Positions 1,554 through 20,626 of a DNA stretch of 32,000 bases are shown one piece after another. Below the pieces are notes generated by a model. It worked only from the letters and a program-made list of their open reading frames with translations, searched no databases and was not told the DNA's origin. Source of the DNA: Moraxella nasovis (GTDB lineage Bacteria > Pseudomonadota > Gammaproteobacteria > Pseudomonadales > Moraxellaceae). The first letter of the stretch is position 1. Each line of letters starts with the position of its first letter. The stretch is from the NCBI RefSeq assembly GCF_022701215.1, contig NZ_CP089976.1:330001-362000 (forward strand). The letters are read 5' to 3'. The position numbers and the translations under genes were made by a program.

Positions 1554-1567
1554 TGGGGGTTTTTTTA
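1546..1567 (+). terminator. Rho-independent terminator after int
   Basis: CCCCC-TGAT-GGGGG hairpin (the int stop codon sits in the loop) followed by a T7 run. Confidence 0.6.
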
Positions 1568-1601
1568 TGGGCTTATTTTTAAGTTTTCGCCAAAAAAGTG
1601 A

Positions 1602-1732
1602 GTAGTAACGGTAGTAAAGTAGTATAAGCCTTTATTTATAAGGGTTTAAGTATTTTTTAGAGTAGTAATTGAGTAGTAATTAGGGGGTTTAGGGTAGTAA
1701 TTGAGTAGTAAAAGTTAGTAATTAGGTAGTAA
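1602..1732 (+). repeat. Array of about 9 direct GTAGTAA / (G)AGTAGTAATT motifs
   Basis: Copies start at 1602, 1611, 1619 (variant), 1662, 1673, 1694, 1705, 1714 (variant) and 1726, in the non-coding gap between int and the brnTA promoter. Confidence 0.7.
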
Positions 1733-1830
1733 TTTTCTCTTTAAAAGTAAAAATTAAAGGGTTTTTGTTTAAGATTTTAGGACATAACGCCTTTTTAAAA
1801 AGTTGCAAATAAAAGATGATTGTTATAGAC

Positions 1831-1854
1831 TGTAATTATAAAAATGTAATTATA
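1831..1854 (+). promoter_or_regulatory. Direct repeat TGTAATTATA-N4-TGTAATTATA; candidate operator of the brnT-remnant/brnA promoter
   Basis: Two exact 10-mers about 10-35 nt upstream of the 1865 ATG. TTGCAA (1803-1808) and TATAGA (1824-1829) are a weak -35/-10 pair with only a 15-nt spacer. Confidence 0.35.
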
Positions 1855-1864
1855 AGGCTAGATA

Positions 1865-1981
1865 ATGCTTTTTGAATGGGACGAACAAAAGAACGCCATT
1901 AACCGCCAAAAGCACGGCGTAAGTTTTGAGACGGCACGCAAACTAAGCAAATCGGAGATTAAAAAATATGGCTATCGTTAG
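1865..1981 (+). pseudogene. brnT: BrnT-family (DUF497) toxin remnant, 38 aa, apparent in-frame internal deletion
   Basis: MLFEWDEQKNAINRQKHGVSFETA matches the conserved BrnT N-terminus. It runs directly into an RKxxKxExKKY-type C-terminal tail (RKLSKSEIKKYGYR). Full-length BrnT is about 90 aa. The ORF overlaps the brnA start by 14 nt. Confidence 0.6.
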
Positions 1982-2246
1982 AATGACCCTAGACCAAATC
2001 GCACAAACAGCGCTAAATCATGACGAGCTAGAACGGTTAAAAGCCCTAAAAGATGGCGATATTGATTACAGCGACATACCACCGCTTACAGATGAGCAGA
2101 TTGCCCATTTTAAGCCCACCAAGCAACAAGTAACCATGAGACTTGATAGCGATGTTTTGGCATGGCTTAAAAAAGACGGTAAGGGCTATCAGACCAAAGC
2201 CAATCGCCTATTAAGGGCGTTGATGTTGCAAGATTTACACACATAA
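1968..2246 (+). CDS. brnA: BrnA-family antitoxin
   Basis: 92 aa with DYSDIPPLTDEQ..F and VTMRLDSDVLAWLKK..GYQT..N..LR, typical of BrnA. Sits immediately downstream of the BrnT-like remnant. Confidence 0.75.
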   Translation: MAIVRMTLDQIAQTALNHDELERLKALKDGDIDYSDIPPLTDEQIAHFKPTKQQVTMRLDSDVLAWLKKDGKGYQTKANRLLRALMLQDLHT

Positions 2247-2294
2247 GAACAAAGCCCCATGATGGGATTTTTTATGTTGTTATCCCACGCCTGC

Positions 2295-2396
2295 CATGTT
2301 TACGTTTACTAATTTTTAAGTATAAGGCGATTATCATGTTTACGATATCAACATATCTATGCTATCATGTTTACGTTTTAGCAATTTTTAAACATG
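2295..2396 (+). promoter_or_regulatory. Three direct CATGTTTACG repeats plus an inverted TAAACATG upstream of fic; candidate operator
   Basis: CATGTTTACG at 2295-2304, 2335-2344 and 2366-2375. TAAACATG at 2389-2396 forms an 8-bp inverted repeat with the third copy. The block ends 10 nt before the fic ATG. Confidence 0.5.
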
Positions 2397-2406
2397 AGAT
2401 GGCATA

Positions 2407-3480
2407 ATGAGCTGGCAAGCAGATTTACCCTACAACGATTTACCGCCCCTACCGCCCATGCAAGACGTGGAAACCAAAGCCATTTTAAAATTATGCGTTG
2501 AAGCTAGGGCAAGCCTTGCAGGGCTAAGACAAGCAGGCGAGTTAATCCCAAACCAAACCATGCTAATTAACATTATTCCCTTGCTAGAAGCACAAGGCAG
2601 TAGTGAAATTGAAAATATCGTAACCACCACCGACAAACTTTTTCAATATGCCTATGATGATAACATAGCAGACCACGCCACCAAAGAAGCTTTAAGATAC
2701 CGAACCGCCCTTTATCAAGGCATACAGACAATCAAAGAACGCCCCTTAACCGCCCAAACCGCCTTAGACATTTGCCAAACCATCAAAGGCGTAAGCATGA
2801 GCATAAGAAACGGCAATGTAACCCTAAAAAACGCACTAGGGCAAACCATTTACACACCGCCTAATGACCCAAGTACTATTTTAGAACTGTTGGCAAACTG
2901 GGAGCAGTTTTTGCACGCAAATGATGACCTAGACCCCCTTGTTAAAATGGCAATTTTGCATTATCAATTTGAAGCCATACACCCTTATTTTGATGGCAAC
3001 GGACGTACAGGGCGAATATTAAATATTTTATTCTTGATTGATAAGGGCTTACTAGATTTGCCCATTTTGTATTTAAGCCGTTTTATATTGGCGAATAAGG
3101 CAGGTTATTATCATGGACTTTTGGGCGTAACCAAAAATCACGATTGGCAGGCGTGGATTAGCTACATTTTGCACGCCATCAAAGATACGAGCGAATGGAC
3201 AACCGCCAAAATTCTAGCCATCAAGGATTTGCACGCCCACACCGCCCAAACCATCAAAGACAAAGCAGGTGCTATTTATAGCCGTGAGTTGGTTGATGTG
3301 ATATTTGAAATGCCCTATTGCCGTATCACAAACCTAGTGGATAAAGGCATAGCCAAACGCCAAACAGCCAGTAACTACTTAGCTAAGTTGGTTGAAATTG
3401 GCGTATTGCAAGAAGTACGAGCTGGTAAAGAAAAGCTATTCATCAATCCTAGTTTGATTGAAGTTTTGCACAATAATTGA
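2407..3480 (+). CDS. fic: Fic family protein (class II, auto-inhibited AMPylase type) with C-terminal winged-helix region
   Basis: Canonical Fic motif [13 protein letters not shown]-terminal inhibitory motif SSEIEN fits [ST]xxxE[GN]. The C-terminal ~70 aa resemble a wHTH ([28 protein letters not shown]). Confidence 0.9.
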
Positions 3481-3578
3481 ACCACCCAAAAACCAAAATC
3501 ACAAAAACCGCTACAAGCTATTCATAGCAAGGCTTATAGCAAGAAATGATTTTAAAAATCTTACAGGAAAACCAAAAA
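3481..3578 (+). repeat. Copy A of a ~98-bp intra-island repeat (A/C-rich, carries a CCGCTACAAG..CTTATAGC palindrome)
   Basis: Roughly 90 percent identical by eye to 6653-6753, with 1-nt indels, so it is conserved at DNA level and not protein level. Confidence 0.8.
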
Positions 3579-3839
3579 ATGATACTTGACCTACCCCCAC
3601 ACATAGAGCAAGCCATTATCGCCAAAGCACAGCAACAAGGCTTAACAGTCAATGAGCTATTAGCCAAAGATTATGCAGGCGTGAATGATGATGATATTTG
3701 GCTAGAACTGGATAAGCACGGTTTAAACGCTGACAGCATGGATATTAACGCAGATGAAGCACGCCATTTAATGCAAATTCTAGATAACCCACCACCGCCA
3801 AACCCAAAGGCAAGAGCCTTGTTATTTGGGGATAGCTGA
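3546..3839 (+). CDS. DUF1778/TacA-like RHH antitoxin (the true start may be the in-frame ATG at 3579)
   Basis: The C-terminal ..ARHLMQILDNPPPPNPKARALL is typical of DUF1778 antitoxins. ATGA stop/start overlap with the downstream GNAT toxin. The first 11 codons lie inside repeat copy A. Confidence 0.7.
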   Translation: MILKILQENQKMILDLPPHIEQAIIAKAQQQGLTVNELLAKDYAGVNDDDIWLELDKHGLNADSMDINADEARHLMQILDNPPPPNPKARALLFGDS

Positions 3840-4291
3840 TGTTTGTATTACTAGACAAATCCCATGACCGACAAGCGTTTGATTGTGGCAATGAAGCCAT
3901 TAACCGCTATTTAAAAACAATGGCGAACCAACACGCCAAAAAGAACATAGCTAAAACACACGTTTTAAGCGATGGGGCAAAGATACAGGCATTTTATACG
4001 CTATCTAACGCCCATTTTGATAATGACGGCATAATCAAGGGCTATCCTAGACAAATCCCCATCATTACCATAGGGCGTATTGGTGTAAGTAGAGATTATC
4101 AAGGGCAAGGGTTAAGTAAAAAAGCCATTCGCCACGCCCTAGAAAAAATCAAAGCCCTTAGCACCGACACAGGCATAACGTTCGCCATGATAGACGCAAA
4201 AAATGAAGCATTAGCAAGCTATTATGAGCGATTGGGCTTTATCCGTATTAACAATGGCTTAAAATTAGCTTATCCAGTTAGTCAGATTTAG
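3839..4291 (+). CDS. GNAT-family acetyltransferase toxin (TacT/AtaT-like)
   Basis: 150 aa. Acetyl-CoA motif RIGVSRDYQGQGLSKKAI (Q/RxxGxG/A). Translationally coupled to the DUF1778 gene, the standard TacAT arrangement. Confidence 0.8.
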   Translation: MFVLLDKSHDRQAFDCGNEAINRYLKTMANQHAKKNIAKTHVLSDGAKIQAFYTLSNAHFDNDGIIKGYPRQIPIITIGRIGVSRDYQGQGLSKKAIRHALEKIKALSTDTGITFAMIDAKNEALASYYERLGFIRINNGLKLAYPVSQI

Positions 4292-4341
4292 TCTTTTTTA
4301 TAATGTAGAAAAACCCTTTTTATAACTAAGGAAAAAACACC

Positions 4342-4476
4342 ATGAGTAAACCCACCAACACCAAGCCAGTTATTATGCACTTAACAGGTGAAGCAGGAAA
4401 ACGCGTAATTTTAAACTCTGCCAAACGTGTTATAAATACCCATAAAAAAGAAATTAAGGCATTGGCGGATAAATGA
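4342..4476 (+). CDS. Small putative antitoxin (44 aa) coupled to doc
   Basis: Unlisted ORF MSKPTNTKPVIMHLTGEAGKRVILNSAKRVINTHKKEIKALADK. AAGGAAAAAAC lies upstream of the ATG. ATGA overlap with the doc start. I recognise no family. Confidence 0.5.
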   Translation: MSKPTNTKPVIMHLTGEAGKRVILNSAKRVINTHKKEIKALADK

Positions 4477-4838
4477 TTGATATAGATTTTGTGATAGCCA
4501 TTCATGACGAGATTTTGGCAAATGAAAAAGGCTTAAAGGGCATTGCAAGCATGGCAAGCCTTGAAAGTTGCTTATCACGCATTGACAATCAAATGAGTTA
4601 TGAGCCATTGGATAATGTATATTTGATAGGGGCATTTTATGCCGTAGCATTAGCCAAAGCACACGCTTTTAATGATGGCAATAAAAGAACCGCCCTTGTG
4701 GTTATGTTAACTTATTTGGATATGCAAGGTATTAACATTGCCCCCAATAGCGGATTAGATGATTTGATGGTAAAAGTGGCAAGCAGTGAAATGAATTATA
4801 CCCACCTTGCAGATATTTTAAAAGATTTAACAGTTTAA
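4473..4838 (+). CDS. doc: Doc (death-on-curing) family toxin, Fic fold
   Basis: Doc variant of the Fic motif, HAFNDGNKRTA. 121 aa, a typical Doc size. Confidence 0.85.
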   Translation: MIDIDFVIAIHDEILANEKGLKGIASMASLESCLSRIDNQMSYEPLDNVYLIGAFYAVALAKAHAFNDGNKRTALVVMLTYLDMQGINIAPNSGLDDLMVKVASSEMNYTHLADILKDLTV

Positions 4839-4922
4839 ACCCTTTTAGCAGGCTAGGAGTAATTAACCGAAAGGCGGTTATTTTTCATACCTTGAACCGC
4901 CACGCCTGCTATCTTTTTTGTT

Positions 4923-4954
4923 AAGGTATGAGATATGAAAGGTATGAGATATGA
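4923..4954 (+). repeat. Perfect tandem duplication of 16 bp (AAGGTATGAGATATGA x2) covering the RBS/start of the 256-aa ORF
   Basis: 4923-4938 equals 4939-4954. It creates an extra out-of-frame ATG at 4935 that opens an 11-codon uORF ending at 4970. Confidence 0.9.
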
Positions 4955-5721
4955 AAGGCATTACCAATGATGAACTATTTAAACTTATGGATAGATTAAG
5001 CATAAATGAAATAGGGGCGTTCATTGCAGGGGCAAGCCCTAGCGATGTTTTTTGTAGTTATCAGGATAAATATTACCTAAATACCAATGAGTCTATGCCT
5101 GAAAATGCTAGCGAAGTTTTTAGTATGATAACCAAAATTTTAACAAGGGCAATTATTGCAGGGGAATTAAAAGCCCAAATTGTCATGAATGATAATGGGC
5201 AAAATTTAATACAAAATGATTTAAATAAAGATTGGTTGGCTATTGGTACAATTAACACCGCACAAACCACCATAACTAGGAATGACATAAAACAATGGCT
5301 AGAAAATAGGGGCGTATTCCCCACCGCATTTTTCCCAAATGGGCGAAAAGATGATTATATGAACCCCAATCATGATTGTTACAGCCCTGACTTGGCATTA
5401 TGTGTTAAAGCTTGGGAAGTGGCACAAACCGCCCATTATGACGGCACAACCAAAGAATTTATGGCAAACTGGATAAAGCAAAATGCCCAAGCCTACAAAT
5501 GGGAAAATCACACAAACCCCAAAGAGCTAATGGGCGATACAAAAGCAAAGGAGTTAGCAAGCGTGGCAAATTGGAATAAAAAAGGCGGAGCGGCTAAGGG
5601 CAACCCCAACTTAAAACAACCTACCCCACCATTAGAACCGCCAATGCCAATTTATGATGAATTAAAAATAAATTTACCACAAAATAGTTCTTTTTCATCA
5701 TCTGATAATGTGCCATTTTGA
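4951..5721 (+). CDS. Hypothetical protein, 256 aa, no recognisable domain; low-complexity Pro/Asn/Ser-rich C-terminal tail
   Basis: Long ORF co-oriented with the cargo genes and followed by a strong terminator. No motif recognised by eye. Confidence 0.6.
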   Translation: MKGITNDELFKLMDRLSINEIGAFIAGASPSDVFCSYQDKYYLNTNESMPENASEVFSMITKILTRAIIAGELKAQIVMNDNGQNLIQNDLNKDWLAIGTINTAQTTITRNDIKQWLENRGVFPTAFFPNGRKDDYMNPNHDCYSPDLALCVKAWEVAQTAHYDGTTKEFMANWIKQNAQAYKWENHTNPKELMGDTKAKELASVANWNKKGGAAKGNPNLKQPTPPLEPPMPIYDELKINLPQNSSFSSSDNVPF

Positions 5722-5764: not shown

Positions 5765-5797
5765 AGCCCTTAATTTGATATTAAGGGCTTTTTATTT
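5765..5797 (+). terminator. Rho-independent terminator closing the cargo module
   Basis: AGCCCTTAA-TTTGATA-TTAAGGGCT, a 9-bp stem, followed by TTTTTATTTT. Confidence 0.75.
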
Positions 5798-5899: not shown

Positions 5900-6112
5900 A
5901 TGAAAGCCATTCAACCAACCCTACCCAAAGGCGGTTTATCCACCGCCAAAGCCATTTTACCGCTATTGCCATTTAGTCGCACAACGCTATGGCGTAAATG
6001 TAATGATGGCACATTCCCAAAGCCTATCAGATTATCAAGCAATAGCACCGCATGGCGTAATGATGACGTATTAGCGTGGCTAAAAAACCCCAACGAATGG
6101 GGGCAAGCATGA
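5900..6112 (+). CDS. alpA: AlpA-family phage regulatory protein / excisionase-like HTH
   Basis: 70 aa. LPFSRTTLWRKCNDGTFPKPIRLSSNSTAWRNDDVLAWL matches the AlpA/MerR-like excisionase pattern. Confidence 0.8.
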   Translation: MKAIQPTLPKGGLSTAKAILPLLPFSRTTLWRKCNDGTFPKPIRLSSNSTAWRNDDVLAWLKNPNEWGQA

Positions 6113-6355: not shown

Positions 6356-6607
6356 ATGAGCCTAAAACAAACCCTTTACAACCACCTAATGACAGGGGAA
6401 ACAATAAGCCCATTACAAGCCTTAAAACTTTTTAATTGTATGAGCCTAGCACAGCGATTAGGTGAGCTTAGGCGTGATGATGGCATACCCATTCAATCAC
6501 GCTTGCACCATGAACCAAGTGGCAAGAAATACGGCATTTATTGGCTAGATAAAGCCTACATTGCAGGCGTGAAAGCTGGCAAGATTAAGGGCTTATATGG
6601 TTATTAA
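6356..6607 (+). CDS. Small helix-turn-helix/winged-helix DNA-binding protein
   Basis: 83 aa. ISPLQALKLFNCMSLAQRLGELRRDDGIPIQS resembles small HTH proteins common in satellite/P4-like replication modules. Lies 4 nt after the previous stop. Confidence 0.55.
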   Translation: MSLKQTLYNHLMTGETISPLQALKLFNCMSLAQRLGELRRDDGIPIQSRLHHEPSGKKYGIYWLDKAYIAGVKAGKIKGLYGY

Positions 6608-6652
6608 AACTACACAGGCAACCAAAACCGAACAGCCAAAAAACCTTACAAA

Positions 6653-6753
6653 ACCACCAAAAAACCAAAATCACAAAAACCGCCACAAGCTAGACATAGC
6701 AAGGCTTGTAGCAAGAAATGATTTTTAAAAATATGACAGGAAAAACCAAAAAA
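6653..6753 (+). repeat. Copy B of the ~98-bp intra-island repeat (carries the CCGCCACAAG..CTTGTAGC palindrome)
   Basis: Aligns with 3481-3578. Sits at the head of a ~560-bp stretch with no convincing gene, before the replication genes. Confidence 0.8.
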
Positions 6754-7402: not shown

Positions 7403-7572
7403 GACACCAAGAAACCTATATCGTAATTAGCCATGAGCTAAACGTTCGTAAAGAGTTTGGCGATAAAGACACCGCCATTTTGTTTTATGAGCAGTTAAAA
7501 CAAGATTTCCCCAAAGCCAAAATAGACGGCTATACCAACATACAAATTACCGATGAATGGGGGCAAGCATGA
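7399..7572 (+). CDS. Hypothetical protein, 57 aa (unlisted ORF)
   Basis: MRHQETYIVISHELNVRKEFGDKDTAILFYEQLKQDFPKAKIDGYTNIQITDEWGQA. ATGA overlaps at both ends chain it into the operon. Confidence 0.5.
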   Translation: MRHQETYIVISHELNVRKEFGDKDTAILFYEQLKQDFPKAKIDGYTNIQITDEWGQA

Positions 7573-7871
7573 GTAACCTTACCCAATTTATTCGCCCCAT
7601 AAGACACAAAAAGCAATTTAATAAATCACGCCTGCCTACGCCAAGCAATCTTTATGGGCGTTTTGGCATTGTGATTAAACACACCAATTGGAATATGGCA
7701 CGTTGCCCCTTTCATGATGACAAGCACGCCAGCATGAGCGTAAACGGCACGCATGGCGGTTTTATTTGCCACGCCTGCCACGAAAAAGGGAGCATGATTG
7801 CGTTTTATATGCGTATGACTGCCAAAGACTACAAAACAGCCATGATTGATTTGGGGGCGTATGATGAATGA
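7569..7871 (+). CDS. CHC2 zinc-finger protein (DnaG/primase-type zinc-binding domain only)
   Basis: CPFHDDKHASMSVNGTHGGFICHACHEKG matches the primase zinc-ribbon pattern CxH..CxxC. The likely start at 7569 overlaps the upstream stop. Confidence 0.75.
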   Translation: MSNLTQFIRPIRHKKQFNKSRLPTPSNLYGRFGIVIKHTNWNMARCPFHDDKHASMSVNGTHGGFICHACHEKGSMIAFYMRMTAKDYKTAMIDLGAYDE

Positions 7872-9783
7872 TTTACTACAACAAGCCCTACAAGGGGCGT
7901 TAAGCCGTGATAAAGGGCTTTTAGGCATGGGGGCAAGCCTTGACGATTTAACCGCCACTTACCCTTATTATCAAGATGGGCAAGAATTGTTTGTCAAAGT
8001 ACGTTTTGACAAAGACGGCAAAAAGTGGATAAAGCCCTTTCACTTTAACGGCAAATACTACAAAATGGGCGAACCAAAAGCAATAGATAAAAAGCCCCTT
8101 TACCAACCAAAACCATTAGGCGATGTGGTGTATATCGTGGAAGGCGAAAAATGCGTTCACGCCCTAATTAATATTGGATTGACCGCCACAACAACAGGGG
8201 GAGCAACAAGCGTGGATAAATGCGATTTAACACCCCTACAAGGGCGTAAATGCGTGCTATGGCGTGATAACGATGACAGCGGTATAAAATGGCAAGGCGA
8301 ACTTGCCAACGCCCTAGATGGGCTTAATATCGCTTATAGCGTGATTGATATTGCAGGCGTGAAAATGCCAAATGGCGATGATTTACCACCCAAAGGGGAT
8401 TGTTACGACTTTATCAAGGCATTTGGCAAAGATGATGATGTAATATGGGAAGTGCAACACTTGCCCTTACTGGATTTGTCATTACTAAATACAGACAATG
8501 CAAATGACCTATTAGCCCTTGATGAGCAGGTAATACAATTGCAAAGCCACATTGCAGAGCTTGCAAACCTTGATGAAATGCGATTGCATTTGCTACTACC
8601 ACAGGTTGCCAAAAGGTACAGTATCAGCAAAGATAGGTTATTACAATGGGTGTATGAGTACAAGCAAGGCGATTTGGTAACAGACCCCACGCCATTTGAT
8701 ACAGCGGTAAGCCATGATGAGATTTATACCGCCCTTTATGAGTTGGTAAACCGCCACATTGTCATAGATGAGCCGTTAAAAGTTGCGTTTGTGTTATGGG
8801 TGATGTTTAGTTACCTTGTGGATATTAGCGACATTGCCCCTATTGCGTGGATTACCGCCCCTGAAAAATCATGCGGTAAATCTACCCTACTAGGGCTATT
8901 TGAACGTGTGGTAAACCGCCCATTTGTCACCCAAAACCCCACAATGGCGGTGATTTATCGTGTGATGGAACGCTACAAGCCTACATTACTGGTTGATGAG
9001 ATAGATACCAATTTAAAGCACAATGACAAGCTATTAGGCATTGTTAATAGCGGTTATTCACGCCATAACTCAAAGACTGCTAGAACGAACATGGATAAAG
9101 GGGGTGGATTTGATGTGTTTGATAGTTTTGGGGCAAAGGTATTTTGTGGTATTGGCGAGATGAAAGGCACATTTGCAAGCCGTGCTATCAGATTTGAGCT
9201 AAGACGAAAAGGCAAAGATGACAAAGTACACCGCCTAAACAAAGCCACCTTGCCCCACAGTCAAACCGACATTATTCGCCAAAAGTGCAAGCGATGGGCG
9301 ATGGATAACCGCCAAGCGGTTGCAGGCGTGCAAATTGAGCTGTTGCCCATTGATGATAGAAGTTTTGATAATTGGTACATACTGTTACAGATTGCCACCG
9401 TACTAGGCAAATATGACACCGCAAAACACGCTTGCCTTGCCATGTGCCAAATCAAGGGCGAACCGTCTATCAATGAGCAGTTATTGGCAGATATTAGGGA
9501 GATTTGGAATGGCGAACGCATGAGCAGTAAATTGTTGCTTGAAAAGTTAAACGCCCTAGATGAAGCCATGTGGCAAACCATCAATAACGGGCAAGAGATG
9601 ACCGCCCACCAATTCGCCAAAAAGCTAAAATCATTTGGTATTAAATCCAAAGATATGCGAATTAAGGATAATCCAACCACCATAAAGGGCTTTTTGAAAT
9701 CTGATTTTCAAAAAGTATGGGATAATTATTTACCACCGCCACAAGCTGATGAAAATCCGTTTTTATTGCCACAAATACAATAG
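7861..9783 (+). CDS. TOPRIM primase / P-loop NTPase (helicase-like) replication protein, P4-alpha-like in organisation
   Basis: TOPRIM signatures YIVEGEKC and WRDNDDSG. Walker A PEKSCGKST, Walker B LLVDEID. ATGs at 7861/7864 follow a GGGGG RBS (track start 7846). Overlaps the zinc-finger ORF by 11 nt in another frame. Confidence 0.8.
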   Translation: MMNDLLQQALQGALSRDKGLLGMGASLDDLTATYPYYQDGQELFVKVRFDKDGKKWIKPFHFNGKYYKMGEPKAIDKKPLYQPKPLGDVVYIVEGEKCVHALINIGLTATTTGGATSVDKCDLTPLQGRKCVLWRDNDDSGIKWQGELANALDGLNIAYSVIDIAGVKMPNGDDLPPKGDCYDFIKAFGKDDDVIWEVQHLPLLDLSLLNTDNANDLLALDEQVIQLQSHIAELANLDEMRLHLLLPQVAKRYSISKDRLLQWVYEYKQGDLVTDPTPFDTAVSHDEIYTALYELVNRHIVIDEPLKVAFVLWVMFSYLVDISDIAPIAWITAPEKSCGKSTLLGLFERVVNRPFVTQNPTMAVIYRVMERYKPTLLVDEIDTNLKHNDKLLGIVNSGYSRHNSKTARTNMDKGGGFDVFDSFGAKVFCGIGEMKGTFASRAIRFELRRKGKDDKVHRLNKATLPHSQTDIIRQKCKRWAMDNRQAVAGVQIELLPIDDRSFDNWYILLQIATVLGKYDTAKHACLAMCQIKGEPSINEQLLADIREIWNGERMSSKLLLEKLNALDEAMWQTINNGQEMTAHQFAKKLKSFGIKSKDMRIKDNPTTIKGFLKSDFQKVWDNYLPPPQADENPFLLPQIQ

Positions 9784-9805
9784 GGGGTATTTTAGGGTAA
9801 AAAAT

Positions 9806-10023
9806 CCGCAACACCGCAACAAGTCAATAAATACAAGGCTTGTAGCGGTTTTTTATCCGCAACATAACCGCAACACGAACCGCAACACCACCAAGAAAAA
9901 CCGCAACACACCCCAAAAATAGGCTAGGTAAAATTTAAGGTGTTGCCCTTTTTGTAGCGGATATGTTGCCCTTTTTGTTGCGGTTTAAAGCCTTATAAAT
10001 AAAGGATTGTTGCGATGTTGCGG
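9806..10023. repeat. Iteron field: 6 direct CCGCAACA copies followed by about 5 inverted TGTTGC(G/C) copies; putative origin of replication
   Basis: CCGCAACA at 9806, 9814, 9857, 9868, 9880 and 9901. TGTTGCCC/TGTTGCGG at 9941, 9964, 9977, 10008 and 10016. Lies immediately 3-prime of the primase-helicase gene. Bracketed by GGGGGTAT (9784) and ATACCCCC (10037). Confidence 0.65.
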
Positions 10024-10453
10024 TTTTTTTGGGGGAATACCCCCCTATTAGTTATGATATTATTTTTGCATTTTTTTGCTTATGGGAAAGCTGGCAAAAT
10101 TAGCCTTGCATGGGGTCGTTTCTCAAACGCCCTTTTTATCATGTAAAAATACGCACAAACCGCCCTATTTTGCATTTTGGCGATAAAGATGAGATAATTT
10201 ACCCATAAGCCAAAACACCGCTTGCATGGGGTTTGTTTTTCAACGGCAAGATTACGGCAAGTTTTTTATTTGGGTATTACACTAAGATTATACTAAGTTT
10301 TTTGTTAAACCACCCTAAGATTACCCCTAAGGTTTTTGGAACCACGAGATTACAACAAGATTTTTAAAACCCTAACATTACCCCAACTTTTATGTTTTTG
10401 ATGTAAAAATGAGCCTATTTTTAAATTAGTGAACAAGTGTGGACTTAACAACT

Positions 10454-10472
10454 TAGTACCTATTTTAGTACC
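10454..10472 (+). promoter_or_regulatory. Second copy of TAGTACCTATTTTAGTACC (candidate P-arm integrase site)
   Basis: Exact match to 165-183; lies 62 nt inside attR. Confidence 0.45.
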
Positions 10473-10533: not shown

Positions 10534-10551
10534 TCCGACCACTGGTACCAT
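10534..10551 (+). repeat. attR core (TCCGACCACTGGTACCAT)
   Basis: Exact repeat of 25-42. Followed by AACCCTT..AAGGGTT plus a T-run hairpin that would be the native tRNA terminator. Confidence 0.8.
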
Positions 10552-17677: not shown

Positions 17678-20626
17678 ATGGTAGCCAAAATCATCATCAC
17701 CAAGGACAATCTGGTTACGCCAGTTGAACTTACCCCACAAGCCACCACCATCATCAAAGCAGATGTCAACACCAATTACAGTATCAAAGACCCTACCAAC
17801 ATCGCCAAAAAAGTCAAAGTTCATCAATCAAACGATGATTTGTGGATTTTTGATGAAGATAATACCACCGATGTGCCAGATGTCATCATTGAAAATTATT
17901 ATGACTACTACCCAAGTCAAGTATCAGCAGATTCCTTGATGGACGCAAGTTTTGGTGATGTGCCAATGGCAGAAATCAGTGCCACAGCTCAGCCTGTAAC
18001 GGCAGACCTTACAAGCCAATCAGCAAGCCTGTCATCAAGTGCCGCTTACACCCCACTATGGAAAGTGCTATCAGCAGGTGGTCTGCTCGCAGGCGGTGCA
18101 TTCGCTCTTAAAAAACACAATAATGCAGACGACAGCAAAGCAGAAGGTAATAAAGCTGATGGTCATATTGACATCACCAAAATCGGCGACAACTTTGGTA
18201 TCAAAGCTGACAACGTAGGTCAAGCAGTGCGTATTGATGGCACGGCAACCTTTGTAGGCTATGAAGGCAGAAATGCCAAATTCGTGCGTACCGTGATACT
18301 ACAAATCGGCGATAAAACCTACCAAGTGGGCGTGGATAACGGCAAGTTTCATTTGGATTTAAGTCTTGAAGATGCCAAAGCGTTAAATGGCAAACCCATC
18401 ACGTATCAGTTTTTGGCAGAAAACTGGAGATTGGACGCAAACAATGAGCCAAAAAATCTGTCTGAAACCAACGACATCAAAATCAACCACATCAAACTAG
18501 ACAACAGCACCGTCAGCTCATTTGTCCTAGATCATCAAGCAACCAAAGACGCAAGTGGCAACTATACACTCAATGCCCATCACACCACCGAAGTGGCAGG
18601 CGTGGTTGGCGGTAGTGCCAAACAAGGCGACACAGTTACCGTGCAAGTCGGTGATAAAAGCTACACCACCACCGTAGATGATCATCTACATTTTAGCGTG
18701 GCTGTAGATACCGACACACTTAGCACCCTAGCAGGCGATAAAGCCAAAATCACAGCAACCCTAACTACCACAGACAAAGCAGGTCAAGCCATCACAATCA
18801 GCGATGAGCAAGGCTATGCCAAACATGGCTTGGCACAGACGGACAATCCTTTTGTGTCTGGGCATGACATCAATACCGACCCAAGTGCTTATTTTGTCAA
18901 AGAATTGGGGCAAGCAAAACTGTACAATCCGTTCTTTAAACGCTTTACCCCAGAAACCTATCATGTGTATGACATTCCTGTAGGTGGCTATGAAGATGGA
19001 CATACGCCGACCATCAAATACTATTTTGCCAAAGGTCTACAAGATTATCAAACCCTGCTAGATAATCCCCAAATCACCAAAGACAACCATCTTAAATTTA
19101 GCCCAAGCGGTGATAGAAAGCGTGCAGAAGCCTTCTTTAATTTAGAGACGACCGAAGAGATGCCTGAACACAGAAAGGCTAATTTGCGTAGTGCTTATAA
19201 GAAAATCGGTGAGTTTGTTAATGTAAATTTTGAAGAAACAGACGACATCACCAAAGCCAATACACACCTGTTTTATACCGACTTTAAGAATGGTTCTTTG
19301 GGTGTTGCTGCACACGGCAGTTATTTGTGGCTCAACAAAACGCCTAATTTGACAGGTAAGGAATATTTGGCAGAATATACCGCCTTGCATGAGATTACTC
19401 ATACATTGGGTATGCACCACAGCCATGAGTCCATTCAATTTTCACAGTTGCCAAACAAGCCTGAGCATATCCATTATTATGAAGAAACGCCTGAATTTAC
19501 TGACATGAGCTATCACTTATATGCCAATGAGTCAGGGTATTCTACATTTGGCAATCTAAGAATGTACGATTTGGCGGCATTGCATTATCAGCTGGGTGTC
19601 AATAAAAATGTGCGTGCAGGCAATGATGTCTATACATTTAAAGAATACGACCTGTACAGCTCTGATGCCAACCGCTATATTTGGGACGGTGGTGGTGTAG
19701 ACACCTTTGACGCTTCGCTAGAAAAGCAAGGCGTGAATGTCAATCTCACCCCCGGTAGTTGGATTTATGTTGGCGATACTAAGCCATATAACTTTGCGGT
19801 GGCTGAGCAAACTCGCCATAACTATGAAGATTCTGGGCGTAAAAAGAGCCACTATGAAGGCGTATGGGTAGAGAACACCTATACAGACGGTCAAGCATTT
19901 ATCGGCTATGGCACACAAATTGAAAATCTCATCGGTACTGCCTATAATGATAAGCTTACAGGCAACAATGCCGCCAACAACATCTATGGTGGTGATGGTG
20001 ATGACCGCATTGATGGTGGTCTTGGCATTGACTACCTAGAAGGTGGTAAGGGCAATGATACCTATGTGGTGGATAATAAAGCCGATATTATCTTTGAGAC
20101 CAAAGATGGTGGCACAGACACTGTGGAGACCAGCACTCACTATACACTCGGTGCAAACTTAGAGAACCTAAAAGCCATTGGTAAGACATCTGTACTCATC
20201 TATGGTAATGAGCTTGATAATACCATCACTGCCAATATAGCAGGTGATACCATCTTTGGTATGGCAGGTAATGATAGAATCATCGGTGGTGCAGGTATGG
20301 ACTTGATGACAGGTGGCGATGGTAATGATGTATTTGTGTTTAATAGCAGACTTGGTGATAAGCCTGCCATTGATACCATCACCGACTTTATAGTAGGTCA
20401 AGATAAGCTTGAGCTGTCTGCCAGTGTATTCAAAGGTTTAGAGAAGTTCAAAGGCGATGCTGATAAGAGTACGCTATTAAGCGAAGGCTATTTGGTGTAT
20501 AACAAAGACACAGGTATGCTGTCTTATGATGCAGACGGCAATGCAGAAGATAAGAGCAAGCCGATTGATTTTGCAAACATCGGTGCAGGACTAAACATTG
20601 ACCCATCGTCTTTTGTGATTGTTTGA
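17678..20626 (+). CDS. RTX-repeat metzincin (serralysin/M10B-like) with a long adhesin-like N-terminal extension
   Basis: Zinc motif HEITHTLGMHH (HExxHxxGxxH). Met-turn DMSYH. Nonapeptide repeats GGDGDDRID-GGLGIDYLE-GGKGNDTYV and GNDRIIGGAGMDLMTGGDGNDVFVF. N-terminus DLWIFDEDNTTDVPDVIIENYY resembles the BapA-prefix region of T1SS adhesins. Two Ig-like repeats (..IGDKTYQVGVDNGKFHL.., ..VGDKSYTTTVDDHLHF..). Confidence 0.85.
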   Translation: MVAKIIITKDNLVTPVELTPQATTIIKADVNTNYSIKDPTNIAKKVKVHQSNDDLWIFDEDNTTDVPDVIIENYYDYYPSQVSADSLMDASFGDVPMAEISATAQPVTADLTSQSASLSSSAAYTPLWKVLSAGGLLAGGAFALKKHNNADDSKAEGNKADGHIDITKIGDNFGIKADNVGQAVRIDGTATFVGYEGRNAKFVRTVILQIGDKTYQVGVDNGKFHLDLSLEDAKALNGKPITYQFLAENWRLDANNEPKNLSETNDIKINHIKLDNSTVSSFVLDHQATKDASGNYTLNAHHTTEVAGVVGGSAKQGDTVTVQVGDKSYTTTVDDHLHFSVAVDTDTLSTLAGDKAKITATLTTTDKAGQAITISDEQGYAKHGLAQTDNPFVSGHDINTDPSAYFVKELGQAKLYNPFFKRFTPETYHVYDIPVGGYEDGHTPTIKYYFAKGLQDYQTLLDNPQITKDNHLKFSPSGDRKRAEAFFNLETTEEMPEHRKANLRSAYKKIGEFVNVNFEETDDITKANTHLFYTDFKNGSLGVAAHGSYLWLNKTPNLTGKEYLAEYTALHEITHTLGMHHSHESIQFSQLPNKPEHIHYYEETPEFTDMSYHLYANESGYSTFGNLRMYDLAALHYQLGVNKNVRAGNDVYTFKEYDLYSSDANRYIWDGGGVDTFDASLEKQGVNVNLTPGSWIYVGDTKPYNFAVAEQTRHNYEDSGRKKSHYEGVWVENTYTDGQAFIGYGTQIENLIGTAYNDKLTGNNAANNIYGGDGDDRIDGGLGIDYLEGGKGNDTYVVDNKADIIFETKDGGTDTVETSTHYTLGANLENLKAIGKTSVLIYGNELDNTITANIAGDTIFGMAGNDRIIGGAGMDLMTGGDGNDVFVFNSRLGDKPAIDTITDFIVGQDKLELSASVFKGLEKFKGDADKSTLLSEGYLVYNKDTGMLSYDADGNAEDKSKPIDFANIGAGLNIDPSSFVIV

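Follow-up and report, generated by a model that had tools for sequence, protein, structure and literature searches.

Do neighboring toxin, antitoxin and Fic genes on a small mobile island work together against phages, or have they been collected there one by one? The question is raised by a ~10.5-kb integrated island of Moraxella nasovis, which lies in the 32,000-nt stretch of contig NZ_CP089976.1 (RefSeq assembly GCF_022701215.1, positions 330,001 to 362,000 of the forward strand) that we analyzed, hereafter called the window. Between the integrase gene (int) and the regulator gene alpA, this island carries a BrnT remnant with BrnA, a Fic enzyme of the SoFic family, a GNAT toxin and its TacA-like antitoxin, a Doc toxin preceded by a 44-amino acid (aa) open reading frame (ORF), hereafter orf44, and a gene for a 256-aa protein, hereafter orf256. 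A preliminary description of positions 1865-5721 had interpreted this array as a candidate anti-phage locus, the components of which may act together. The analysis presented here points to a different answer: a recombination-prone slot on the M. nasovis island has probably gathered four self-contained, co-oriented modules singly, rather than one cooperative system.

Every ORF named in the preliminary description was found at its coordinates and on the + strand in the list of ORFs, and the terminators that it placed on both flanks were recovered as hairpins with T-runs at 1543-1562, after int, and at 5765-5789, after orf256, together with a third terminator-like hairpin at 4864-4880 (hairpin search). 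All recognizable genes of the island are on the + strand, on which the coordinates of the other mapped features are also given unless stated otherwise.

The variable slot behind the integrase

The window was compared with 26 related islands of Moraxella and Psychrobacter, metagenomic loci included (designated here by L numbers), 19 of which were found with the profile of orf256, the TacA-like protein serving as a second, separate anchor. In blastn comparisons, homology with these islands resumes at position 4850 for L002-L005, at 4839 for L006 and at 4843 for L020 and L021 (85% identity), namely a few bases past the stop codon of doc (4838). The resumed segment takes in the hairpin at 4864-4880, and its first part (4843-4930) is backbone DNA common to the sister islands, thereby marking the right boundary of the slot; with L002-L006, the homology continues through orf256 towards alpA. 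This restart and the run through orf256 place the variable cargo interval at ~1554-4842, bordered on one side by the integrase gene and on the other by the DNA that accompanies alpA. On the same comparison orf256 (4951-5721), previously counted among the cargo, belongs to the alpA-travelling region and lies outside the variable part. The order of int, orf256 and an alpA-type gene is found in 19 of 19 orf256 loci where the sequence suffices, followed in most by a winged-helix gene.

The distance from int to orf256 is 3397 nt in the window, which holds the largest slot content of the sample. The slot is empty, with ~200-270 nt, in L006-L010 and L018; it measures 300-500 nt and holds an ORF of 62-80 aa in L001, L011, L016 and L019, 420 nt with an N-terminal remnant of HicB in L014 and L015, 933 nt with HicA plus HicB in L012 and L013, and 1317 nt with a 348-aa AAA ATPase in L002-L005. 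Among the islands retrieved with the TacA-like anchor, L024-L028 show the order int, RelA_SpoT (347 aa), TacA-like, GNAT, an unrelated gene of 327 to 391 aa, alpA and winged helix, and their RelA_SpoT protein (for example at 355-1398 of L025) corresponds over its full length to the PADLOC candidate PDC-S33 (E = 1.6e-123). L020 and L021 carry TacA-like, GNAT, an unrelated 263-aa gene and alpA, together with a DUF927 primase. The slot is therefore truly variable, and genes of toxin-antitoxin or defence type are its usual tenants. This agrees with two expectations of the preliminary description, that the interval between int and alpA would differ in content among related islands, its right edge falling at 4839-4850 in three comparisons, and that its content would be related to defence: SoFic is present in the window, while HicAB, PDC-S33 and the TacA-like/GNAT pair recur in the same slot elsewhere.

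The small ORFs that occupy the slot of some sister islands (L001, 9693-9896; L011, 285-473; L016, 1507-1749; L019, 1415-1603) contain an ILDNPF motif resembling the C-terminal, toxin-neutralizing segment of TacA and have no GNAT partner; that of L001 matches Pfam TacA1 with E = 0.024. Such proteins may be orphan antitoxins, to go by their motif. A second cargo slot is present behind the primase of L003 (13440-17658) and L004 (13587-17807), extending up to chromosomal lpxC and containing SoFic plus fragmented McrBC-like genes.

Four modules and their assembly

The first module is a decayed BrnT/BrnA pair. The BrnT remnant (38 aa, 1865-1981) matches the Pfam profile BrnT_toxin only at positions 1-24 of 77, with 30.2 bits versus a cutoff of 34.5; its residues 1-24 align with residues 2-25 of the 94-aa toxin of PDB entry 7vd7, and its C-terminal ~13 residues align weakly with residues 79-91. 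In comparison with 7vd7, ~53 internal residues are absent and the protein falls short of a full-length BrnT ribonuclease. With the N- and C-terminal parts kept and the middle gone, the remnant is the product of an in-frame internal deletion that removed the catalytic core and inactivated the toxin while the antitoxin was kept. BrnA itself (92 aa, 1968-2246) is intact, with 59.3 bits for Pfam BrnA_antitoxin and a match to phrog_4692 (antitoxin), and the start of its gene overlaps the stop of the BrnT remnant, the overlap being 14 nt. The loss of ~53 internal residues in BrnT leaves BrnA as an orphan antitoxin, not as part of a working pair.

The second module is SoFic (357 aa, 2407-3480), identified by Pfam, NCBIfam and PADLOC as a class II Fic AMP-transferase of a single-gene anti-phage family. 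It has the Pfam architecture Fic_N, Fic and SoFic-like_C, passes the NCBIfam equivalog NF046030 with 581 bits versus a cutoff of 550, and matches the PADLOC SoFic model along residues 10-355 (E = 2.6e-115). Its translation reads HPYFDGNGR at the catalytic motif, the third residue being Tyr and not Phe, and the inhibitory motif typical of class II, SSEIEN, lies at residue 65, N-terminal to the core. Genes of this family are reported to be standalone defence genes (Millman et al. 2022; bioRxiv 10.1101/2022.05.11.491447), and the structural study of EcSofic describes an abortive-infection AMPylase that is toxic when expressed (PMC12249575). By analogy, we infer that SoFic confers phage protection in M. 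nasovis: the auto-inhibited enzyme would AMPylate host proteins upon phage infection and thereby lead to abortive infection. A SoFic cassette is common to L003 and L004 and spans window positions 2336-3458 in blastn, homology stopping inside the 3' end of the gene; the SoFic proteins of these two islands have 81% aa identity to that of the window and are encoded after the primase, beside the McrBC-like genes. Upstream of SoFic (2295-2375), repeat and promoter searches revealed a promoter-like site (2339-2368) as well as CATGTTTACG, which is present in three exact copies. The copies are 40 and 31 nt apart and overlap the promoter-like site, two of them lying inside the cassette common to L003 and L004; their arrangement makes these repeats candidate operator sites. 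An AS1-like antitoxin gene 3' of SoFic was considered and rejected, the sole candidate ORF (3458-3589) lying in a ~100-nt repeat (described below) and being absent from the SoFic cassettes of L003 and L004.

The third module combines the TacA-like antitoxin (86 aa, 3579-3839) with a GNAT toxin (150 aa, 3839-4291), the antitoxin gene coming first and the two genes overlapping by 1 nt. The longest ORF of the TacA-like gene runs from 3546, and its start is likely the ATG at 3579 annotated by NCBI. The toxin belongs to the AtaT/TacT/KacT family according to matches in structure databases (AtaT 6gts, E = 2.4e-17; TacT 6g96, E = 9e-17; KacT 5zgn, E = 2e-16) and retains the conserved catalytic Tyr, its YYERLGF segment being aligned to FYKSLGF of AtaT. 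GNAT toxins of this family acetylate aminoacyl-tRNA, and the one in the window would do the same. As to its partner, Pfam TacA1 (PF08681, DUF1778) matches only the C-terminal 32 residues with E = 0.011, and the 16.1 bits stay below the gathering cutoff of 21, which leaves the protein outside the DUF1778/TacA family by this measure. A profile built from ten homologues matches the toxin-neutralizing peptides of TacA3 and TacA1 (E = 0.003-0.05, TacA3 giving E = 0.003). The AlphaFold2 model is weak, with a predicted local distance difference test score (pLDDT) of 63.5, and has a strand-helix-helix-like order; the five best Foldseek matches of this weak model are to TacA3, AtaR and KacA, with E values of at least 0.18. 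Consequently, the name given to this protein in the preliminary description holds for its C-terminal segment, which resembles TacA, and not at the level of the Pfam score, this being the weakest of the family assignments; the model and profile tentatively suggest a ribbon-helix-helix-like N-terminus followed by a C-terminus similar to the toxin-neutralizing segment of TacA.

The TacA-like family comprises 11 sequences, all named members of which are from Moraxella, and tblastn of the protein versus plasmids gave no match. Its pairing with GNAT is conserved, a GNAT gene accompanying the TacA-like gene throughout L020-L031 and following it in L020-L023, L025, L027, L028 and L031. The pair is found without Doc in the same slot of L020, L021 and L025-L028, and at a chromosomal site that is not an island in L022. 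The GNAT gene is shortened to 90-106 aa in L024, L026 and L029. In two metagenomic loci, the TacA-like/GNAT pair comes after an ORF of 53 aa that matches Pfam TacA1 (L030, 4379-4540; L031, 1087-1248), which suggests, from gene order, a three-gene variant or a split antitoxin. Outside the window, M. nasovis has three additional TacA-like paralogues, LU293_04885, LU293_00135 and LU293_04875 (P0170, P0173 and P0174), a hint that its genome holds more members of this toxin-antitoxin family, or more islands related to the one described here.

The fourth module pairs Doc (121 aa, 4473-4838) with orf44 (4342-4476), a putative Doc antitoxin gene that is not annotated by NCBI and overlaps doc by 4 nt (ATGA). 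Doc scores 64.2 for TIGR01550 versus a cutoff of 38.65 and is similar to Doc of phage P1 (E = 6e-18); its motif HAFNDGNKR at residue 64, that of a Fic-fold kinase, fits the pattern HxFx[DN][AG]NKR. Doc is known to phosphorylate EF-Tu, and in this module a Doc kinase with this target would be held in check by a 44-aa antitoxin that is not Phd. The product of orf44 matches phrog_11529 (E = 6e-16), a family with no assigned function, and nothing in Pfam or NCBIfam, so that it does not classify as Phd/YefM. Homologues are present in 24 plasmids, and in 11 of the 12 records listed the match abuts or overlaps an annotated toxin of the Doc family; orf44/Doc pairs of this kind reside on Acinetobacter plasmids of 7-13 kb. 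Searches of phage genomes with orf44-Doc (blastn) and orf44 (tblastn) returned no match. To judge from these sequences, orf44 is a real conserved gene and its pairing with Doc is conserved. Positions 4313-4842, which correspond to the orf44/Doc module, have no counterpart in L020, where the segments homologous to their two flanks adjoin each other (blastn); the difference is therefore one module, neither more nor less, that was inserted or deleted.

How much of this cargo is defensive? In PADLOC, SoFic alone matches a validated defence system. BrnA has a single match, marginal and partial, to DndH (E = 0.0029), Doc has weak partial matches to candidate systems only, and the GNAT gene has none; the search thus upheld the defence reading of the preliminary description for SoFic and gave no validated match for BrnA, GNAT or Doc. 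These results bear on the view that the pairs are purely addiction modules or selfish passengers, with SoFic as the sole defence gene and the orphan BrnA as an anti-addiction antitoxin or a regulator. It would fit the homologues of orf44/Doc on small mobilizable plasmids, a classical context of addiction, the presence of TacA-like/GNAT at a chromosomal site that is not mobile, and the signs of decay, which include BrnT here, the HicB remnant of L014 and L015 and the 90- to 106-aa GNAT proteins of L024, L026 and L029. On the other hand, abortive infection is a mode of action open to toxin-antitoxin modules in general, as with ToxIN, DarTG and CapRel, and the pairs considered here sit beside recognized or candidate defence genes (SoFic, PDC-S33), a guilt by association that has predicted defence genes before. 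We consider this view possible rather than probable; it overlaps the explanation that we favor and differs from it only in denying the pairs any phage phenotype. According to the latter explanation, stepwise accretion, the two intact toxin-antitoxin pairs would act independently of each other, to stabilize the island, as abortive-infection switches, or both.

The preliminary description had gone further and suggested that the modules act together, the presence of two Fic-fold enzymes in one block being considered unusual. In such a cooperating multi-toxin anti-phage locus, the GNAT toxin and both Fic-fold enzymes would share their regulation and act jointly to stop translation upon infection. 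Its attraction lies in the seven co-oriented ORFs within 3.3 kb, enclosed by the hairpins at 1543-1562 and 4864-4880, in three intact effectors expected to arrest growth (Doc acting on EF-Tu and GNAT on aminoacyl-tRNA, as known for their families, plus SoFic, which is toxic when expressed), and in the recurrence of defence-type genes in this slot of related islands. Yet the modules are found singly or in other combinations elsewhere, orf44/Doc is an insertion with respect to L020, and BrnT has already been destroyed. Each toxin has its own overlapping antitoxin gene, the overlaps of 14, 1 and 4 nt (BrnT remnant/BrnA, TacA-like/GNAT and orf44/Doc, respectively) being typical of toxin-antitoxin operons, while SoFic has its own promoter-like site. 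PADLOC recognizes no multi-gene system for GNAT or BrnA, and its hits for Doc remain weak, partial and limited to candidate systems. A single cooperating locus is consequently very improbable, the co-occurrence of two Fic-fold enzymes looks like chance accretion and finds no support as something mechanistically unusual, and the occurrence of each module alone or in different combinations points to stepwise accretion and not to a cooperating unit.

Several considerations weigh against stepwise accretion as presented here. The genes all point the same way, and SoFic is not separated from the TacA-like gene by a strong terminator; co-transcription, and hence some functional coupling, is possible. 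Defence by SoFic in Moraxella would be an extrapolation from other species. The sample of related islands is small and, since 19 of its 26 loci were retrieved with orf256, the constancy of orf256 is partly circular, while the islands retrieved with the TacA-like anchor hold unrelated genes at its position. (A search for homologues of the winged-helix gene orf83, intended as a non-circular anchor, returned only the query itself.) Finally, with integrases that share only 27-38% identity in their aligned segments, DNA homology does not give the left boundary of the slot.

The gene beside alpA and the backbone of the island

The region next to the slot raises a separate possibility of novelty. The 256-aa product of orf256, which is 100% identical to LU293_01665 of M. 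nasovis, has no match in Pfam, NCBIfam, PADLOC or PHROGs, and ten of its distant relatives gave only noise in Pfam. At E <= 0.001, its profile retrieves 945 cluster representatives (50% identity), a family with no annotation; 565 of them are retrieved at E <= 1e-10. AlphaFold predicts two helical domains of moderate confidence followed by a disordered tail from residue 207 (pLDDT 65) that ends in DNVPF; Foldseek found nothing similar to this model in PDB or BFVD. (The orf256 profile found no relative in the viral contigs of IMG/VR, a result that is uninformative on satellite status.) Tips were counted in 163 members, namely the window protein, whose C-terminal region is encoded by 5560-5718, and relatives P0002-P0163. 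The protein ends with [IVLM]-P-F in 61 of these, and in 56 of the 61 at least two of the five preceding residues are acidic, the chance expectation being 0.07; examples are DDDIPF, DDDLPF and EDDLPF, whereas the window tip, SDNVPF, is a weaker variant. Such tips are like the conserved C-terminal hexapeptide of bacterial SSB, DDDIPF, which is described in PMC5872125 as a known docking hub for many replication and repair proteins.

One may thus ask whether orf256, rather than the toxin array, is the main novelty of the locus, its SSB-like tip engaging the host or phage proteins that bind SSB tails, with a role in island replication, helper-phage sensing, defence or counter-defence. The position of the gene directly 5' of alpA in 19 loci, the integrases of which are ~28-32% identical to that of the window over most of their length, is in favor of this idea, as are the size of the unannotated family, the frequency of acidic tips far above chance and the predicted disorder of the tail. 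It is weakened by the fact that the tip in the window is the weaker variant, that ~47 of the 163 members stop right after GGAPKTP and have no tail at all, that the moderate model has no structural homologue, and that unrelated genes replace orf256 in sister islands (L020 and L024-L028), the upstream regulatory DNA being still conserved in L020. On balance we regard this role as doubtful. A more specific proposal makes orf256 the prototype of a large family of mobile-element proteins, as yet without annotation, that plug into the host SSB interactome through an acidic-[I/L/V]-P-F tip, which many members have at the end of a long disordered tail; it is unlikely as it stands. If true, the protein might bring replication or repair proteins (PriA, RecQ, ExoI, DnaG, chi subunit) to the island, or keep them from an infecting phage by titration, and the toxin modules would be cargo of the usual sort next to an island factor of a new type. 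At 4920-4953, a 16-nt tandem duplication (two copies of GGTATGAGATATGAAA) extends across the orf256 start codon, giving rise to a second ATGAAAGGTAT that is upstream and out of frame.

The island that carries these genes is delimited by two types of repeats. The window opens with the final 41 nt of a tRNA-like gene, which is cut by the window start and consists of T-arm, acceptor strand and ACCA; this fragment (1-42), for which ARAGORN and Rfam gave no call, is probably a tRNA from its T-arm and acceptor sequence, and tRNA-Leu given the ACCA end. It contains attL (25-42), with an 18-bp core, TCCGACCACTGGTACCAT, the only other exact copy of which in the window is attR (10534-10551), while an arm-type 19-bp repeat, TAGTACCTATTTTAGTACC, lies just inside both island ends at 165-183 and 10454-10472. 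The att repeats and the internal 19-bp repeats together delimit an integrated island of 10.5 kb, the recognizable genes of which are all on the + strand. At its right end the G+C content drops to 32%, and ordinary chromosomal genes come next. (Farther along, at 17678-20626, the chromosomal part of the window encodes a 982-aa protein with zinc-metalloprotease motif HExxH and C-terminal GGxGxD repeats of RTX type, as read from the translation only.)

Core genes recognized by Pfam and PHROGs are limited to int, alpA and primase. The integrase is a tyrosine recombinase of 452 aa (195-1553; Pfam Arm-DNA-bind_3, Phage_int_M and Phage_integrase; phrog_1) and alpA (5900-6112) encodes a 70-aa regulator or excisionase of the AlpA family (Pfam Phage_AlpA; phrog_2790). 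It is followed by orf83 (83 aa, 6356-6607; Pfam HTH_39), a winged-helix backbone gene that has tblastn matches in L002-L021 and is kept beside alpA in related islands, and then by several ORFs with no assigned function. The primase (7557-9783) is encoded in two ORFs, one with the CHC2 zinc ribbon (7557-7871) and the other with Toprim plus DUF3631 (7846-9783), which are in different frames and have an overlap of 26 nt. The same split is seen in L019 (4222-6470), for which reason it is probably either native or due to a programmed frameshift, rather than the mark of a pseudogene. Rfam searches of the island (E <= 1) yielded two spurious snoRNA matches and no ToxI-like or retron RNA.

Further repeats are found in the slot and in the backbone. 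The left edge of the slot (1602-1732) is occupied by an array of seven same-strand GTAGTAA copies that spans 130 nt past the int terminator; the motif has eight matches in the window, a number reached in none of 100 shuffles, and the array after int is absent in 13 related loci. It may be a protein-binding array. A ~100-nt direct repeat has one copy (A) at 3480-3580, between SoFic and the TacA-like gene and including the upstream region of the latter, and another, 92% identical (B), at 6652-6752, in the backbone, where orf83 and orf184 flank it. A third copy, which is partial (9801-9846), lies at an iteron field (9801-10035) in which CCGC[ACT]ACA recurs on both strands, and all copies share CCGC[ACT]ACA and GGCTTRTAGC; the iteron field is a putative replication origin. 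The ~100-nt repeat was considered as a mark of a cassette excised or duplicated by recombination and this was set aside, for no related locus was found to carry a copy.

Comparison with known systems

Taken module by module, the cargo resembles well-known systems with particular departures. The BrnT/BrnA pair has its BrnA intact and preserves gene order and overlap, whereas its BrnT has lost the ~53 internal residues. SoFic shares with established SoFic systems full-length matches to curated models, the three-domain architecture, the SxxxEN inhibitory helix and the Fic motif; it differs in the Tyr that replaces Phe at the third residue of this motif and in that no conserved, small AS1-like antitoxin gene is evident downstream in the window. 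In relation to TacAT, AtaRT and KacAT, the toxin is homologous (E = 2e-17) with the conserved Tyr kept, and the antitoxin gene is likewise upstream with a 1-nt overlap, its C-terminal segment matching the peptides of TacA3 and TacA1; the antitoxin remains under the Pfam DUF1778/TacA1 threshold and the toxin is ~20 residues shorter than AtaT. The Doc protein is similar to its counterpart in Phd/Doc of phage P1 in scoring above the TIGR01550 cutoff, in the motif HxFx[DN][AG]NKR and in the small upstream gene that overlaps by 4 nt. Its partner differs from Phd in having 44 aa, too few for a separate DNA-binding domain, and in belonging to phrog_11529, with no similarity to Phd/YefM.

The island as a whole was previously described as a P4-like satellite. 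This label does not hold, since P4-like satellites are defined by seven core components, namely int, psu, delta, sid, alpA, epsilon and alpha (PMC10085698), and only int, alpA and a primase are detectable here. For phage-inducible chromosomal islands (PICI), the SatelliteFinder definition asks for four or more out of five core components, among them genes for packaging or capsid hijacking (PMC10085698); with three markers only, the M. nasovis island would be a 'Type C PICI' at most, a class that the authors of SatelliteFinder excluded as ambiguous (PMC10085698). None of its ORFs matches psu, delta, sid, terS, capsid or capsid-remodelling genes in Pfam or PHROGs.

Anti-phage hotspots of satellites have been reported between int and psu of P4 (Rousset et al. 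2022, PMC9122126), for the immune systems encoded by PICI (Fillol-Salom et al. 2022, as cited in PMC10803314) and between prim and fis of phage-inducible chromosomal minimalist islands (PICMI; PMC10803314). The M. nasovis island differs from these elements in its Moraxellaceae host, in its integration at a tRNA, a site unlike that of PICMI, and in having no detected gene for capsid remodelling or the other packaging-related functions listed above. Islands with int, alpA, primase and a slot of rapid turnover are well described in Enterobacteria and Vibrio, and the pattern is now extended to the Moraxellaceae, bacteria of animals and cold environments in which such islands have drawn little attention. 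They offer a natural example of how modules accrete and decay, with Doc insertion, internal deletion of BrnT and the remnants of HicB and GNAT in sister islands, and their two slots, after int and after primase, are marked for mining the defence genes of Moraxella and Psychrobacter. The more interesting lead, and not a result, is the large unannotated family beside alpA with its SSB-tip-like C-terminus. In common with satellite hotspots, the M. nasovis locus has int, alpA and primase on an integrative island of small size, and a single flank-defined slot with changing content that is rich in defence and toxin-antitoxin genes; the second slot behind the primase of L003 and L004 resembles the prim-fis slot of PICMI, the minimalist satellites to which the island is closest in size and content. 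The slot is thus an ordinary example of a known pattern, in which a small integrative island bears a hotspot of defence and toxin-antitoxin genes, rather than a combined system of a new type.

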